A stretch of DNA of 64,000 bases. It comes from Escherichia coli (GTDB lineage Bacteria; Pseudomonadota; Gammaproteobacteria; Enterobacterales; Enterobacteriaceae). Shown in pieces: positions 8,350 to 52,030 of the stretch; positions within the stretch are counted from its first letter, which is position 1, and each line of letters starts with the position of its first letter. Below the pieces are notes generated by a model. The model did no database searches and was not told where the DNA came from. It saw only the letters and a list, made by a program, of their open reading frames with translations. Made by a program: the position numbers and the translations under genes. The stretch lies in assembly GCF_003019035.1 (NCBI RefSeq), contig NZ_CP027447.1, one strand, 5' to 3'.

Positions 8350-9672
8350 TTATTTGTCGAACAGATAATGATTTACCAGATTTTCCAGTTGCTCCTGGCG
8401 ACCACTCTGATGCACCGGAGACAAATTATGTTCCTGAGCATATTTGGCTAAATCTGCCAGTGACATTTGGCCTTTCAGGATTTGCTGGCCTAATTCGCTA
8501 TTCCAGCCGGAATAACGCTGCGCGATGCGTTTATCCAGCTCGCCATCTTCAATCATGCGCGCTGCAATTTTCAGCGCCAACGCCATCGTATCCATCGCGC
8601 CAATATGACCGTAAAACAGATCATATTTATCAGTACTTTGACGACGTACTTTGGCATCGAAGTTCAGACCACCGGTGGTGAAACCGCCTGCTTTGAGAAT
8701 TTCATACATCACCAGCGCATTCTCTTCCACACTGTTCGGGAACTGGTCGGTGTCCCAGCCCAGTTGCGCATCGCCACGGTTGGCGTCGACAGAACCGAAC
8801 AGGCCAAGCGCAATGGCGGTGGCTATTTCATGATGGAAAGAGTGACCTGCCAGCGTCGCGTGGTTAGCTTCAATATTCAGTTTAATCTCTTTTTCCAGAC
8901 CAAACTGTTTCAGGAAGCCATAGACCGTCGCAGCATCGTAATCATATTGATGTTTGGTCGGTTCTTGCGGTTTCGGTTCGATAAGCAACGTGCCCTGGAA
9001 ACCGATTTTATGTTTATGCTCAACCACCATCTGCATAAAGCGGCCCAGCTGTTCACGCTCCTGGCGCAAGTCGGTATTTAACAGCGTTTCGTAACCTTCA
9101 CGACCACCCCACAGGACATAGTTTTCACCGCCCAATTTATGGGTTGCTTCCATCGCTGTAACAACTTGCGTTGCCGCCCAACTGAAGACTTCAGGATCTG
9201 GGTTCGTCGCCGCACCCGCGCCATAGCGAGGGTTTGTAAAGCAGTTAGCAGTTCCCCACAGCAGCTTCACGCCGCTCTCTTCTTGCTTGCCTGCCAGGAC
9301 ATCAACCATTTGCGCAAAATTATTGATGTACTCTTTTAACGACGCGCCCTCAGGGGAAACATCTACATCGTGGAAGCAATAAAATGGCACATGTAACTTG
9401 TGGAAAAACTCAAATGCGACATCTGCTTTACGCTTCGCCAACGCCAGTGCCTCACCAGGCTGCTGCCACGGACGATTAAACGCCCCCACACCAAACATAT
9501 CCGCCCCGTTCCAGCAGAAGGTGTGCCAGTAGCAGGCGGCAAAACGCAAATGCTCTTCCATACGCTTGCCCAACACCAGTTCGTCGGGATTGTAGTGACG
9601 GAATGCTAACGGGTTTGAGGATTTTGAGCCTTCATAACGAACGCGATCGAGCTGGTCAAAATAGGCTTGCAT
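8350..9672 (-). CDS. xylA: Xylose isomerase; start at internal ATG ([15 protein letters not shown]...)
   Basis: ORF 8350-9684; canonical XylA N-terminus begins at the ATG at 9670-9672. Confidence 0.97.
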
Positions 9673-43530: not shown

Positions 43531-46500
43531 ATGAGCGGAAAACCGGCGGCGCGTCAGGGCGACATGACGCAGTATGGCGGTAGCATTGTTCAGGGTTCTG
43601 CCGGGGTGCGTATTGGTGCCCCCACCGGTGTGGCCTGTTCGGTGTGCCCCGGCGGGGTGACGTCCGGCCATCCGGTCAATCCGCTGCTGGGTGCAAAGGT
43701 CCTTCCCGGCGAAACCGACCTTGCCCTGCCCGCCCCGCTGCCGTTCATTCTCTCCCGCACCTACAGCAGTTACCGGACAAAAACGCCCGCGCCGGTGGGG
43801 AGCCTCGGCCCCGGCTGGAAAATGCCTGCGGATATCCGCTTACAGCTGCGCGATAACACTCTGATACTCAGTGATAACGGCGGCAGAAGCCTGTATTTTG
43901 AGCACCTGTTTCCCGGTGAGGACGGTTACAGCCGCAGCGAGTCACTCTGGCTGGTGCGCGGCGGCGTGGCGAAACTGGATGAAGGTCACCGGCTGGCCGC
44001 ACTCTGGCAGGCGCTGCCGGAAGAGCTTCGCCTGAGTCCGCATCGTTATCTGGCGACGAACAGTCCACAGGGGCCGTGGTGGGTACTCGGCTGGTGTGAG
44101 CGGGTGCCGGAGGCGGAGAAGGCCACTTCCGGCGGGACGGAACCGTCCGCTTTTCCTGATACCCTGCCGGGTTACACCGAATATGGCCGGGACAACGGCA
44201 TCCGTCTGTCTGCCGTGTGGCTGACGCACGACCCGGAATACCCGGAGAATTTACCTGCCGCGCCGCTGGTGCGCTATGGCTGGACGCCACGCGGCGAACT
44301 GGCGGTGGTGTATGACCGCAGCAATACACAGGTGCGCAGCTTTACTTACGATGATAAATACCGGGGCCGGATGGTGGCGCACCGCCGCGCGGGCCGGCCG
44401 GAAATCCGTTACCGTTACGACAGCGACGGGCGGGTGACAGAACAGCTAAACCCGGCAGGCTTAAGCTACACGTATCAGTATGAGAAAGACCGCATCACCA
44501 TCACCGACAGCCTGGACCGCCGTGAAGTGCTGCACACGCAGGGCGAAGGCGGGCTGAAGCGGGTGGTGAAAAAGGAACACGCGGACGGCAGCGTCACGCA
44601 GAGTCAGTTTGACGCGGTGGGCAGGCTTAAGGCACAGACGGATGCCGCAGGCCGGACGACTGAGTACAGCCCGGATGTGGTGACGGGACTCATCACGCGC
44701 ATCACCACGCCGGATGGCAGGGCATCGGCGTTTTACTATAACCACCACAACCAGTTAACGTCAGCCACCTGGCCTGACGGGCTGGAAATACGCCGGGAAT
44801 ATGATGAATCCGGCCGTCTGATTCAGGAAACCGCACACAACGGCGATATCACCCGCTACCGTTATGATAATCCACACAGTGACTTCCCCTGCGCAACGGA
44901 CGATGCCACCGGCAGCCGGAAAACCATGACGTGGAGCCGTTACGGTCAGTTGCTGACCGTCACTGACTGTTCCGGTTATGTAACCCGTTATGACCATGAC
45001 CGCTTCGGGCAGATGACGGCGGTGCACCGCGAGGAAGGCCTGAGCCAGTACCGCGCATACGACAGCCGTGGACAGTTAATTGCGGTGAAAGACACGCAGG
45101 GCCATGAAACGCGGTATGAATACAACGCCGCCGGTGACCTGACCGCCGTCATTGCCCCGGACGGCAGCAGAAACGGGACACAGTACGATGCGTGGGGAAA
45201 GGCCGTCCGTACCACGCAGGGCGGGCTGACCCGCAGTATGGAATACGATGCTGCAGGACGGGTCATCCGCCTGACAAACGAAAATGGCAGCCACACCACC
45301 TTCCGTTACGATGTACTCGACCGGCTGATACAGGAAACCGGCTTTGACGGCCGCGCACAGCGTTATCACCACGACCTGACCGGCAAACTTATCCGCAGCG
45401 AGGATGAGGGGCTGGTCACCCACTGGCACTATGACGAAGCAGACCGCCTCACGCAGCGCACCGTGAATGGCGAAACCGCAGAGCGGTGGCAGTATGACGA
45501 ACGCGGCTGGCTGACAGGCATCAGCCATCTCAGCGAAGGGCACCGGGTGACGGTGCATTACAGGTATGATGAGAAAGGCCGCCTGACCGGTGAGCGCCAG
45601 ACGGTGCATCACCCGCAGACGGAAGCACTGCTCTGGCAGCATGAAACCAGACATGCGTACAACGCGCAGGGGCTGGCGAACCGCTGTATACCGGACAGCC
45701 TGCCCGCCGTGGAATGGCTGACTTATGGCAGTGGTTACCTGGCAGGGATGAAGCTGGGTGACTCGCCCCTGGTGGAGTACACCCGCGACCGCCTGCACCG
45801 GGAAACGCTGCGCAGCTTCGGCCGTTATGAACTCACCACCGCTTATACCCCTGCCGGGCAGTTACAGAGCCAGCACCTGAACAGCCTGCAGTATGACCGC
45901 GATTACACCTGGAACGACAACGGCGAACTCATTCGCATCAGCAGCCCGCGCCAGACCCGGAGTTACAGCTACAGCGACTCCGGCAGGCTGACCGGCGTTC
46001 ACACCACCGCAGCGAACCTGGATATCCGCATCCCGTATGCCACGGACCCGGCAGGTAACCGCCTGCCCGACCCGGAGCTGCACCCGGACAGCACCCTCAG
46101 CATGTGGCCGGATAACCGTATCGCCCGTGACGCGCACTATCTTTACCGGTATGACCGTCACGGCAGGCTGACGGAGAAAACCGACCTCATCCCGGAAGGG
46201 GTTATCCGCACGGATGATGAGCGGACTCACCGGTACCATTACGACAGCCGGCACCGGCTGGTGCACTACACGCGGACACAATATGCAGAGCCGCTGGTCG
46301 AAAGTCGCTATCTTTACGACCCGCTGGGCCGCAGGGTGGCAAAACGGGTATGGCGACGTGAACGGGACCTGACGGGCTGGATGTCGCTGTCACGGAAACC
46401 GGAAGTGACCTGGTACGGCTGGGACGGCGACCGGCTGACCACGATACAGAACGACAGAACCCGCATCCAGACGATTTATCAGCCGGGGAGCTTCACGCCA

Positions 46501-47571
46501 CTCATCAGGGTCGAAACCGCCACCGGTGAGCTGGCGAAAACGCAGCGCCGCAGCCTGGCGGATGCGCTTCAGCAGTCCGGCGGCGAAGACGGTGGTGATG
46601 TGGTGTTCCCGCCGGTGCTGGTGCAGATGCTCGACCGGCTGGAAAGTGAAATCCTGGCTGACCGGGTGAGTGAGGAAAGCCGCCGCTGGCTGGCATCGTG
46701 CGACCTGACGGTGGCGCAGATGCAAAACCAGATGGAACCGGTGTACACGCCGGCGCGAAAAATTCACCTGTACCACTGCGACCATCGCGGCCTGCCGCTG
46801 GCGCTTGTCAGCACGGAAGGGGCAACAGCGTGGTACGCAGAATACGATGAATGGGGCAACCTGCTGAATGAAGAGAACCCGCACCAGCTGCAGCAGCTCA
46901 TCCGCCTGCCGGGTCAGCAGTATGATGAGGAGTCCGGCCTGTATTACAACCGCCACCGCTATTATGACCCGCTGCAGGGGCGGTATATCACTCAGGATCC
47001 GATTGGGCTGAAGGGGGGATGGAACCTGTATGGATATCAATTGAATCCGATATCAGACATCGACCCCCTGGGTTTATCTATGTGGGAGGATGCAAAATCG
47101 GGGGCATGTACTAATGGTCTTTGCGGCACACTATCCGCTATGATAGGTCCAGATAAGTTTGATTCTATAGATAGCACCGCATATGACGCCTTAAATAAAA
47201 TAAATAGCCAATCTATTTGCGAAGATAAAGAGTTCGCTGGTTTAATATGTAAGGATAATAGTGGCAGATATTTCTCAACAGCACCTAACCGAGGGGAAAG
47301 AAAAGGATCATATCCATTCAATAGCCCTTGCCCTAATGGTACTGAGAAAGTATCAGCTTATCATACTCATGGTGCAGATAGTCATGGAGAATATTGGGAC
47401 GAAATATTTTCAGGCAAAGATGAGAAAATAGTTAAAAGTAAAGATAACAATATCAAGTCATTTTATTTGGGCACGCCCAGTGGTAATTTTAAAGCAATAG
47501 ATAACCACGGGAAGGAAATAACAAACGGAAAAGGATTACCTAATGTCTGCAGAGTTCATGGTAATATGTAA
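43531..47571 (+). CDS. rhsA: Rhs-family polymorphic toxin (RhsA-type core with YD repeats, PxxxxDPxGL boundary at residues 1173-1182, and a 164-aa variable C-terminal tip)
   Basis: 1346-aa ORF; conserved N-terminus [17 protein letters not shown]...; YD-repeat core; DPLGL at nt 47062-47076 followed by an abrupt drop in GC content. Confidence 0.93.
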
Positions 47572-47926
47572 AAAAATATTGTTTAGGAACTGTGTCATTG
47601 TATCTTTGTTTGTTTTTACATACAACACATGGGCGCAGTGTAATAATAATATTAAAATAATGCGCAAGTATGAAAGTGAGGGTAAATATACCGTTAGAAA
47701 TTTGGTTAAAAATAAAGCTATAGCATTGGAATTAGCTGAGATATATGTTAAGAATCGTTATGGGCAGGATGCCGCAGAAGAAGAAAAACCATATAAAATC
47801 ACTGAGTTAACAACAAGTTGGGTTGTTGAAGGCACCATTCACTCAGACCAAATTGCTGGTGGGGTTTTTATTATAGAAATAGGCAAAAATGATGGGGGAA
47901 TTCTGAATTTTGGCCACGGAAAATAA
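47543..47926 (+). CDS. Putative immunity protein for the RhsA C-terminal tip (small AT-rich ORF with N-terminal hydrophobic segment)
   Basis: 127-aa ORF overlapping the rhsA 3' end by 29 nt; role inferred from position. Confidence 0.5.
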
Positions 47927-48030
47927 GTATGTAAGGATAATCAAACATCGTGTGCGCTGATGGCAGAGTAGGTGGAGGACTCCAGACAGTCAAACGATAA
48001 AAAAAGATAGCCTTTATGGAGGTTCCTGCA

Positions 48031-48873
48031 ATGTCAAATACATACCAGAAAAGAAAGGCAAGTAAAGAGTATGGTTTATATAATCAATGTAAGAAACTAA
48101 ATGATGATGAATTATTTCGCTTACTTGATGATCACAATTCCTTGAAAAGGATTTCATCTGCCAGAGTATTACAGTTAAGAGGTGGGCAAGACGCTGTTAG
48201 ATTGGTAATTGAGTTCTGCTCTGATAAAAATTATATCCGTAGAGATATCGGAGCATTTATACTCGGGCAAATAAAAATTTTCAAAAAATGCGAAGATAAT
48301 GTGTTTAATATTTTGAACAATATGGCATTGAATGATAAGAGCGCTTGCGTTCGAGCTACGGCAATCGAGTCAACGGCTCAGCGATGCAAGAAAAACCCAA
48401 TTTATTCACCTAAAATAGTAGAACAATCTCAAATTACTGCTTTTGATAAATCGACTAATGTCAGACGTGCTACAGCATTTGCTATTTCTGTTATCAATGA
48501 TAAAGCAACAATTCCACTATTGATTAATCTGTTAAAAGATCCAAATGGAGATGTCAGAAACTGGGCCGCATTTGCAATAAATATCAATAAATATGATAAT
48601 AGTGATATTAGGGATTGTTTTGTGGAGATGCTTCAGGATAAAAATGAGGAAGTCCGTATTGAAGCAATAATCGGACTTTCCTACAGAAAAGATAAAAGGG
48701 TTTTATCTGTTTTATGCGATGAGTTAAAAAAAAATACTGTTTATGATGATATCATTGAAGCTGCGGGTGAATTAGGTGATAAAACGCTACTTCCTGTTTT
48801 AGATACTATGTTGTACAAGTTTGATGACAATGAAATTATAACTTCCGCTATTGATAAGCTGAAGCGTTCATAG
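48031..48873 (+). CDS. yibA: HEAT-repeat protein YibA; start at internal ATG (MSNTYQKRK...)
   Basis: ORF 48016-48873; known 280-aa protein begins at 48031. Confidence 0.85.
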   Translation: MSNTYQKRKASKEYGLYNQCKKLNDDELFRLLDDHNSLKRISSARVLQLRGGQDAVRLVIEFCSDKNYIRRDIGAFILGQIKIFKKCEDNVFNILNNMALNDKSACVRATAIESTAQRCKKNPIYSPKIVEQSQITAFDKSTNVRRATAFAISVINDKATIPLLINLLKDPNGDVRNWAAFAININKYDNSDIRDCFVEMLQDKNEEVRIEAIIGLSYRKDKRVLSVLCDELKKNTVYDDIIEAAGELGDKTLLPVLDTMLYKFDDNEIITSAIDKLKRS

Positions 48874-48883
48874 CGTGAGTTGC

Positions 48884-49040
48884 CTATGCACAGTGGGGTA
48901 TTCCCGCCGGCACGGTGCAGATGCTCGATCGGCTGGAAAGTGAAATCCTGGCTGACCGGGTGAGTGAGGAAAGCCGCCGCTGGCTGGCATCGTGCGGCCT
49001 GACGGTGGCGCAGATGAAAAAACAGATGGAACCGGTGTAC
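48884..49040 (+). pseudogene. 5' portion of an orphan Rhs core fragment, separated from its continuation by an IS insertion
   Basis: About 150 bp nearly identical to rhsA 46600-46750, ending at the IS left junction. Confidence 0.6.
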
Positions 49041-50332
49041 CAGGGAAAGATCACGTAACGCTGCTTTTTTGTACTAAACAATTCGCATTTTATGTTTAAA
49101 AATTGAGATATTCCTCATTACCTGAAGCTGTTTTTTATTGCTTATACATGATCAAATACTCCTTACATAATTAAGGAGAACAAAATGGTACTTAAAAAAT
49201 TGATGGAACATATTTCTATTATCCCCGATTACAGACAAGCCTGGAAAGTGGAACATAAATTATCGGATATTCTACTGTTGACTATTTGCGCCGTTATTTC
49301 GGGTGCAGAAGGTTGGGAAGATATAGAGGATTTTGGGGAAACACATCTCGATTTTTTGAAGCAATATGGTGATTTTGAAAATGGTATTCCTGTTCACGAT
49401 ACCATTGCCAGAGTTGTATCCTGTATCAGTCCTGCAAAATTTCACGAGTGCTTTATTAACTGGATGCGTGACTGCCATTCTTCAGATGATAAAGGCGTCA
49501 TTGCAATTGATGGAAAAACGCTCCGGCACTCTTATGACAAGAGTCGCCGCAGGGGAGCGATTCATGTCATTAGTGCGTTCTCAACAATGCACAGTCTGGT
49601 CATCGGACAGATCAAGACGGATGAGAAATCCAATGAGATTACAGCTATCCCGGAACTTCTTAACATGCTGGATATTAAAGGAAAAATCATCACAACTGAT
49701 GCGATGGGTTGCCAGAAAGATATTGCAGAGAAGATACAAAAACAGGGAGGTGATTATTTATTCGCTGTAAAAGGAAACCAGGGGCGGCTAAATAAAGCCT
49801 TCGAGGAAAAATTTCCGCTGAAAGAATTAAATAATCCAGAGCATGACAGTTACGCAATTAGTGAAAAGAGTCACGGCAGAGAAGAAATCCGTCTTCACAT
49901 TGTCTGCGATGTCCCTGATGAACTTATTGATTTCACGTTTGAATGGAAAGGTCTGAAGAAATTATGCGTGGCAGTCTCCTTTCGGTCAATAATAGCAGAA
50001 CAAAAGAAAGAGCCCGAAATGACGGTCAGATATTATATCAGTTCTGCTGATTTAACCGCAGAGAAGTTCGCCACAGCAATCCGAAACCACTGGCACGTGG
50101 AGAATAAGCTGCACTGGCGTCTGGACGTGGTAATGAATGAAGACGACTGCAAAATAAGAAGAGGAAATGCAGCAGAATTATTTTCAGGGATACGGCACAT
50201 CGCTATTAATATTTTGACGAATGATAAGGTATTCAAGGCAGGGTTAAGACGTAAGATGCGAAAAGCAGCCATGGACAGAAAGTATCTGGCGTCAGTCCTT
50301 GCGGGGAGCGGGCTTTCGTAATCTTTCCCTGC
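49041..50332 (+). mobile_element. ISAs1-family insertion sequence (Rhs-associated H-repeat), apparently intact, with 15-bp terminal inverted repeats and a 9-bp direct target duplication CCGGTGTAC
   Basis: Terminal repeats CAGGGAAAGATCACG (49041-49055) and CGTAATCTTTCCCTG (50317-50331); flanking CCGGTGTAC at 49032-49040 and 50333-50341. Confidence 0.8.
49185..50321 (+). CDS. ISAs1-family (H-repeat-associated) transposase
   Basis: 378-aa [29 protein letters not shown]... recognised as an H-rpt / ISAs1 transposase. Confidence 0.9.
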
Positions 50333-50335
50333 CCG

Positions 50336-51109
50336 GTGTACACGCCGGCGCGAAAAATCCACCTGTACCACTGCGACCATCGCGGCCTGCCGCTGGTGCT
50401 TATCAGCACGGAAGGGGCAACAGCGTGGTACGCAGAATATGATGAATGGGGCAACCTGCTGAATGAAGAGAACCCGCACCAGCTGCAGCAGCTCATCCGC
50501 CTGCCGGGTCAGCAGTATGATGAGGAGTCCGGCCTGTATTACAACCGCCACCGCTATTATGACCCGCTGCAGGGGCGGTATATCACTCAGGATCCAATTG
50601 GGCTGAAGGGGGGATGGAATTTTTATCAGTATCCGTTGAATCCGATAACTGATATTGACCCGTTGGGATTAGCGACCTGTTTATACAGCATAACTTTAGG
50701 TATGCTTTCATGCGTTTCAGATACGCCAAGTGATGATAATTCTTATGGTGTGCTTACTATTTCAGTCGCCTCTGATAATAATGGTAATAATATGCAATGT
50801 AAAAATAATCCTGGTTGTACACACTTACAAAATAGAGGCCCAATACCTCAAGGGGTATGGAGCTGGAATGTTAATGGTCCTGGAGCAACCAATAGAAAAC
50901 CTAATGGTATACGTTTAGTACCGTCAGCAAATACAGAAACGTATAATCGTGATGGATTTTTAACACATAGTTGTTTAAACGCTTTTGGTCCATCTTTAGG
51001 ACCTCGATTCTGTTCCGAGGGTTGTATAACTGGTTCATCTAATGACATGCAAAAATTAAATGAGCTAATATTTTCAGAGCCAGATAGCACATTAACAGTG
51101 ACGGACTAG
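50336..51109 (+). CDS. Orphan Rhs C-terminal fragment (yibJ-like): last ~110 aa of the Rhs core through DPLGL plus a 145-aa alternative toxin tip with an L,D-transpeptidase-like Cys motif; GTG start in the ORF track
   Basis: N-terminal 110 aa nearly identical to RhsA residues ~1070-1180; tip contains H...SEGCITG. Confidence 0.8.
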
Positions 51110-51113
51110 AAAT

Positions 51114-51635
51114 ATGGCAAGGTTATTAACAATTGTGCTTTTTTTCTCTATTTCTGCGAATGCAGTTACTGTAAACCAATTTCAGAGAGAGTTGGATTTG
51201 GCAGACAAGGCAATATTATGGGCACTAATATCAGCCAGTACCCAAGAGGGACGAAAAGCGTGTTCACTTAGCTATTTTTCATGTAAAGCCGCAGAGGCTG
51301 AACTCGGACTGGCATATATGGCTGCTAATGATAACAAGGCATTTCTCACATCCTTATCTAGAATAATGATGTACAAAATAGATGCTGGACTTTCCGAATC
51401 CTATACATGCTATTTATTAAGCAAGGGAAAGATCATAAGACCATATCTGAAGAATCTAAATCCACACCAACTTGTCGCTGATTGCATTGAAACTGTAAAT
51501 AAAATAAAAGATAAAAATAAAAAAATCATTGATATAGATTCAGTTAATATTTGCAATGATAATAAAAATATAAATTGGAGAGTTAATAGTACTATTGTAG
51601 CCATTGATGATTCTATAAAATGCATCGATGAATAA
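51114..51635 (+). CDS. Putative immunity protein for the orphan Rhs tip, with cleavable signal peptide (predicted periplasmic)
   Basis: 173-aa AT-rich ORF 4 bp downstream of the orphan tip; N-terminus MARLLTIVLFFSISANA-VT. Confidence 0.5.
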   Translation: MARLLTIVLFFSISANAVTVNQFQRELDLADKAILWALISASTQEGRKACSLSYFSCKAAEAELGLAYMAANDNKAFLTSLSRIMMYKIDAGLSESYTCYLLSKGKIIRPYLKNLNPHQLVADCIETVNKIKDKNKKIIDIDSVNICNDNKNINWRVNSTIVAIDDSIKCIDE

Positions 51636-51797
51636 TAACTTAATTATATTTAAAAATATATTAATAACTCACTCTCCAGGAGTTTTTTTAACTTAGTGTT
51701 ATAATGAATACGATAATTAAAAGTGAAGAGAAAAATAGTTGTATACATATATTCCATGAACCTACATTGTGATCTATAAATTATATATTTTTAAATG

Positions 51798-52030
51798 TGA
51801 CTGTCATCCTTCAGATAATAAAGCCATCATCGCAATAGATGGAAAAGCACTCCTGCTCTTTTTTGATTAGAGCCGTGGCAGAGGAACAACTCATATCATC
51901 ATTGCGATCTCGACAATGTATAGTCTGATCCTTCGGCAGATCAAGACGGATAAAAATCCAATGAGTTCACACTCATCCCGAACTTCTTAACATAATGGAT
52001 ATTAACGAAAAATCATCACAGCCGATGAAA
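51798..52030 (+). pseudogene. Degenerate internal remnant of an ISAs1/H-repeat transposase gene
   Basis: About 230 bp with ~75-80% identity to 49480-49700 of the intact transposase gene, with frame disruptions. Confidence 0.65.

Follow-up and report, generated by a model that had tools for sequence, protein, structure and literature searches.

Insertion sequences of the ISAs1 family are single-ORF elements of ~1.2–1.5 kb with terminal inverted repeats starting CAGGG (ISfinder), and two copies are usually assigned to the same IS when they share >95% DNA or >98% protein identity. The closest described relative of the element reported here is the K-12-type H-rptB (transposase gene yhhI, RhsB element; locus L002 in our comparison), which is also Rhs-associated and has a truncated yibA-like pseudogene on one side and non-Rhs DNA on the other. 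The concept of the orphan Rhs C-terminal tip has been described (PMC3032704; PMC2935791), and a genome paper of 2011 stated that transposition of H-rpt “has not been observed” (PMC3032704).

The window analyzed here (the whole stretch of 64,000 nucleotides of Escherichia coli DNA) contains an H-rpt copy that shares with the K-12-type H-rptB its length of 1,291 bp, its CAGGG...CCCTG ends, its association with Rhs sequences, and its orientation. The two differ in that the window copy lies inside an Rhs core fragment, has a recognizable target duplication, and belongs to a younger subfamily. They do not represent the same junction, as the flanks of L002 are unrelated on both sides and carry no duplication. 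Uninterrupted cassettes such as those in strains D8, XH990, and Santai have the same order as the window locus (yibA - orphan core - Tlde1 tip - Imm57 - yibH); they lack the IS, contain CCCGGTGTAC once, and are ~3% diverged from the window.

The original prediction for this region was an intact 1.29-kb ISAs1/H-repeat element in an orphan Rhs core, and this description was borne out. The element occupies positions 49041–50331 on the + strand and measures 1,291 bp. The left boundary (49040/49041) reads ...CAGATGGAACCGGTGTAC/CAGGGAAAGATCACG..., with CAGGGAAAGATCACG as the start of the element, and the right boundary (50331/50332) reads ...CGTAATCTTTCCCTG/CCCGGTGTACACGCC..., where the inverted partner ends at 50331 (reverse complement CAGGGAAAGATTACG). 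The 15-bp terminal inverted repeats proposed earlier match at 14 of 15 positions and are extended by a repeat finder to 25-nt arms with 80% complementarity (IRL, 49041–49065, + strand; IRR, 50307–50331, − strand); these terminal inverted repeats are imperfect. CAGGG...CCCTG ends are common to the window copy and all 15 other ISEc1 copies measured, which were extracted from other genomes, and 12 of those 15 also span 1,291 bp from CAGGG to CCCTG.

The single ORF of the element (49185–50321, + strand) encodes a transposase of 378 amino acids with no internal stop, and its ATG is preceded at a distance of 8 nt by AGGAG. The protein matches the full NCBIfam model for ISAs1 family transposases (NF033564, model positions 1–314) at 416.6 bits against a cut-off of 70, and has Pfam hits to PF13808 (E = 1.5e-33) and PF01609 (E = 5.4e-30). 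Putative DDE residues, assigned by motif, are D109, D172, and E306. It is identical to YhhI (ISEc1) of the K-12-type RhsB element at 373 of 378 residues (98.7%), while at the DNA level 35 of 1,291 nt differ from the K-12-type H-rptB (97.3% identity), within the usual range for one and the same IS. Given the intact ends, the family score, and the identity to YhhI, the element is ISEc1, the classical Rhs-associated H-repeat, in a structurally intact form; RefSeq likewise labels the copies in close relatives of the window “ISAs1-like element ISEc1 family transposase”. ISEc1 is matched in 5,342 of 5,426 complete E. coli genomes, at a median of 5 places per genome and roughly 25,900 places in all; SCU-301, a strain discussed below, has 7.

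The order yibF - rhs - yhhH - yibA - orphan - Imm57 - yibH - yibI - mtlA identifies the locus as the RhsA chromosomal site. The main full-length rhs gene (rhsA; 43531–47571, + strand, 1,346 amino acids), whose core is homologous to the orphan arms, is 97.5–97.8% identical to a gene annotated rhsB in strain 142. Its reading frame is open, but relative to the strain 142 gene (4,236 nt) it is short by 195 nt, an in-frame difference of 65 codons; the missing segment corresponds to about nt 588–777 of that gene and falls around 44114–44117 in the window. The main gene is separated from the orphan by yhhH (47543–47926, + strand) and yibA (48016–48873, + strand), together 47543–48873, both placed by comparison with the RefSeq-annotated loci L003 and L005, which are collinear with the window; yibA encodes a HEAT-repeat protein (NF007244, 459 bits).

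The orphan begins with a 5′-truncated core left arm (48891–49040, + strand), in frame and ending ...QMEPVY, and continues beyond the IS with a right arm (50332–50668, + strand; PF03527 RHS, TIGR03696) that ends at the PxxxxDPxGL boundary motif. The toxin tip follows (50669–51109, + strand) with a Tlde1-like domain (PF10908 Tlde1_dom, E = 1.5e-6), and its ortholog is named “tlde1 domain-containing protein” in RefSeq. The cognate immunity gene belongs to the Imm57 family (51114–51635, + strand; PF15596, E = 2e-44, and RefSeq annotation of orthologous loci). Homology of the orphan to the rhs core is confined to the final ~450 nt, and the cassette has the features of an orphan C-terminal tip: a truncated core 3′ of a full rhs gene, PxxxxDPxGL, a toxin tip, and an immunity gene. 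A consensus scan for promoters and terminators gave nothing beyond what shuffled controls gave. An old degenerate H-rpt remnant separates the Imm57 gene from yibH (51797–52027, + strand), 80.5% identical to IS nt 428–661, in the same orientation as the IS and separate from the new insertion. Equivalents of this remnant are present in L001, L003, L004, L005, and L006, which makes it much older than the intact copy; at L001, which we take to be a K-12-like locus of the same organization, the old degenerate remnant is the only H-rpt sequence.

Joining the flanks of the IS restores the sequence of rhsA, as had been proposed. Positions 48914–49040 are 97% identical to rhsA 46620–46746 and positions 50333–50632 are 96% identical to rhsA 46738–47037, so that the rhsA matches of the two flanks overlap by exactly 9 bp. 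The joined flanks read ...GGAACCGGTGTACACGCC..., as in rhsA, and the reading frame is continuous across the join.

The original prediction also named a 9-bp target duplication. An exact 9-bp direct repeat, CCGGTGTAC, is indeed found by the repeat finder at 49032–49040 and 50333–50341, but the length of the duplication has to be revised. The right repeat is set off from the IS end by a single extra C at 50332; orphan alleles that lack the IS have GGACCCGGTGTACACG here, with the target CCCGGTGTAC once (strain 142 has the one-base variant GGACCCGGTGTTCACG); and three further ISEc1 copies are bounded by perfect 10-bp duplications, namely CCTTATATAG in UPEC129 (L013), GACGTAGTAC in 382634_2f (L016), where ISEc1 lies inside an IS200/IS605 tnpA, and GTTATCAGGG in Z0117EC0005 (L017), where it lies between ugd and wzzB. 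On this evidence the native target was CCCGGTGTAC and the duplication is 10 bp long with one mismatch: the left duplicate, ACCGGTGTAC (49031–49040), matches the right duplicate, CCCGGTGTAC (50332–50341), at 9 of 10 positions, and the right copy is the same as the uninterrupted alleles. The first base of the left duplicate would then have changed later from C to A. A 9-bp duplication flanking an IS of 1,292 bp is ruled out, as the other copies end in CCCTG and are mostly 1,291 bp long, with 10-bp duplications around three of them. Literature searches on the duplication length of ISAs1/ISEc1 and on relationships between ISs and Rhs orphans returned nothing specific.

The empty site was searched for with the window flanks joined after removal of one duplicate. 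In many E. coli genomes this query gives one uninterrupted alignment of ~1,598 nt at 96.5–96.9% identity, with the gene order yibA - orphan Rhs - Imm57, and the single uninterrupted alignment of the joined flanks argues that the insertion is not a chance pattern. The comparison with other E. coli proposed at the outset thus yields uninterrupted orphans, ~97% identical for the best alleles; a relative with at least 99% identity and a fully collinear empty site was not found in this search.

Both junctions, queried with 120 nt spanning each, are contiguous in only one of 5,426 complete E. coli genomes, that of SCU-301. The right junction seemed widespread, with 43 genomes matched at ≥80% coverage, but all of these except SCU-301 are matched in two pieces, over 148 or 367 bp, and their IS end is 28 or 247 bp away from the insertion position in the window core. 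The left junction matched three genomes, two of which are likewise two-piece joins, and its exact pattern had 0 hits in the collections of metagenomes and of species-representative genomes. The SCU-301 sequence departs from that of the window chiefly by lacking single bases in homopolymers, which resembles assembly error; the strain is of the same lineage, and its independent assembly confirms the structure. With SCU-301 as the only other carrier among the complete genomes, the insertion is lineage-specific and its junctions are not ancestral, and the reading of the locus as a transposition event, which ancestral junctions would have overturned, is upheld.

We therefore conclude, with a probability of roughly 90%, that ISEc1 transposed into the core of an orphan Rhs-Tlde1 cassette at the RhsA locus in a lineage that includes SCU-301. 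This reading draws on the intact ends and ORF, the duplication, the uninterrupted alleles elsewhere, and the restriction to one lineage; given how freely Rhs cores recombine, the flanks may have been rearranged since the insertion. Judging from its family membership, ISEc1 is expected to use DDE cut-and-join chemistry. The transposase would recognize the CAGGG-terminated inverted repeats, the IS ends would be joined to a 10-bp staggered cut at CCCGGTGTAC, and gap repair would duplicate the 10 bp.

The strongest challenge to this reading comes from ~65 complete genomes of the strain 142 / LR-28 type, which have flanks 99.4–99.5% identical to those of the window and also carry ISEc1 at the RhsA locus, in the same orientation and 5′ of the same Tlde1-Imm57 orphan, in a copy that differs from that of the window by only 8–10 nt. 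In these genomes, yibA is followed by a complete extra orphan whose tip and immunity gene are different ones and whose core is uninterrupted at the insertion site of the window. An old H-rpt remnant is then fused directly to the left end of the IS, the right end of the IS is fused to the Tlde1 orphan core 231 bp further in (the equivalent of 50563), and there is no target duplication. One older insertion might accordingly be common to all of these strains, with the window in the original state and the relatives having lost the flanks by IS-adjacent deletion or recombination, in which case the event would be neither lineage-specific nor recent. It would indeed be a coincidence for an IS of low activity to hit twice, independently, within ~230 bp. 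Nevertheless, the relatives differ from the window at both junctions, and a comparable remnant-to-IS junction at the RhsC locus of strain HS-02 (L009) suggests that their copies have a different origin. The strain-142-type copies moreover share substitutions at 50282, 50289, and 50303, all three absent from the window copy, which is nearer to copies at other loci (5–7 differences) than to them. We consider a shared older insertion unlikely. The strain-142-type ISEc1 was rejected as the same insertion because both junctions differ and the SNP pattern does not group the copies, and no single IS-IS or core-core recombination suffices to derive the window structure from a strain-142-type ancestor. 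Since neither structure can be derived from the other by any single event, we treat the two insertions as having, in all likelihood, separate histories. The window right arm (50332–50562) differs at 8 of 231 positions from the orphan-1 core of the strain 142 type, while orphan 2 lacks this segment.

Junctions of a full ISEc1 left end with an old H-rpt fragment (...GAATGGAAT(T or C)C/CAGGG) were observed in L005 (8123–9560) and L006 (5121–6560), both from relatives of the strain 142 / LR-28 type, and in L009 (2848–4277). Because this composite recurs without a target duplication, remnant-ISEc1 copies have probably spread by recombination and not by fresh insertion.

Homologous recombination or gene conversion could also have imported the IS with both core arms as a block from another Rhs core, of the same genome or of a donor strain, and Rhs cores are long near-identical repeats that lend themselves to this. 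Positions 50342–50562 are closest to the main rhs core of the window, with 4 mismatches against 7–9 to orphan alleles. On the other side of the IS, the left flank (1,539 bp) has 8 differences from strain 142, and four of these, clustered within 32 bp of the IS (49009, 49017, 49022, and 49031), have the look of a conversion patch; those at 49017, 49022, and 49031 are C-to-A changes, the last being the first base of the left duplicate. This cluster (49009–49031) may be a small conversion patch, may be linked to the insertion, or may have another cause. However, neither junction is contiguous at any other locus or genome among the 5,426 apart from SCU-301, the exact left-arm sequence is found only in that strain, and the left flank is collinear up to 49038 and 99.5% identical to the relatives’ orphan beside yibA. 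A block import is therefore improbable in our judgment, still more so than a shared older insertion. Mis-joining of the IS and Rhs core repeats during assembly is conceivable in principle, both being multi-copy and prone to mis-assembly, but the complete and independently assembled SCU-301 genome has the same structure with both junctions, and a real insertion would be expected to show just this duplication and a reading frame that runs on from one flank to the other; we regard an artefact as having next to no chance of being the explanation.

The transposition into the orphan core had been described as recent, and this part of the original prediction needs softening. The window copy falls within a young ISEc1 subfamily whose members differ by 5–16 nt and lies 5–10 nt from the other members, while older copies (K-12 H-rptB, ydcC) are 29–49 nt away. 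No identical donor copy was found among the copies compared; at least 5 nt separate the window copy from every one of them, the closest differing by 5–8 nt, with best matches at 99.4–99.6%. Among the seven young-subfamily copies compared, the window copy has private substitutions at 49904 and 50015, and its change at 49652 is common only to L006. In view of the mismatch in the duplication, the private substitutions, and an insertion that predates the split from SCU-301, the event is lineage-specific but not of the latest date. Perfect duplications in two further members of the young subfamily, L016 and L017, point to recent movement of this subfamily in natural E. coli, and the window copy itself may still be active. 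Together with L013, L016, and L017, the window copy provides natural comparative evidence, with 10-bp duplications, that H-rpt transposes.

The relationship between ISEc1 and orphan cores extends beyond the window. Of the 16 copies examined, 4 have an Rhs core fragment immediately beside the right end of the IS, each at a different position in the core (IS end/core at 9546/9547 in L005, 2560/2561 in L007, 2560/2561 in L008, and 50331/50332 in the window). The core is truncated at the IS end in three of these (at the equivalents of 50563, 49003, and ~48785), whereas the window core continues beyond the IS. All eight Rhs-adjacent ISEc1 copies examined point the same way as the adjoining Rhs features, although they may not be independent events and the pattern echoes the long-known association of H-rpt with Rhs. 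It is a speculative and rather doubtful extension that ISEc1 repeatedly targets and reshapes orphan Rhs cassettes, the window copy being a rare intact, just-inserted precursor of IS-bounded orphans. If this were so, deletions next to the IS, or read-through driven by it, could be a means of creating, trimming, or expressing silent toxin/immunity cassettes.

The IS splits the core homology of the orphan into a 150-bp and a 300-bp arm and leaves the right arm, toxin tip, and Imm57 gene intact. The homology that remains 3′ of the IS is 300 nt long and 96% identical to the main core, and recombination of the right arm with that core could still put the Tlde1 tip on the main gene, deleting the IS. 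A crossover in the left arm would bring the IS itself into the main gene. Because the tip, the immunity gene, and this homology are intact, the insertion probably does not remove the potential use of the cassette.

In the RefSeq record of SCU-301 the locus is annotated in separate parts, as a transposase of the ISAs1 family with a partial Rhs pseudogene on each side. These two “partial RHS” entries are better annotated as a single orphan Rhs-Tlde1 cassette that ISEc1 has interrupted. Both the insertion sequence and the kind of target are known, and the insertion is an ordinary strain-specific structural polymorphism of a polymorphic-toxin locus; its significance beyond bookkeeping is small. 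Elsewhere in the window and unrelated to the insertion, two RNAs score above their Rfam gathering thresholds: the sok antitoxin RNA (RF01794; 898–1053, − strand, 82.7 bits) and naRNA4 (RF02564; 33942–34020, + strand, 71.6 bits).
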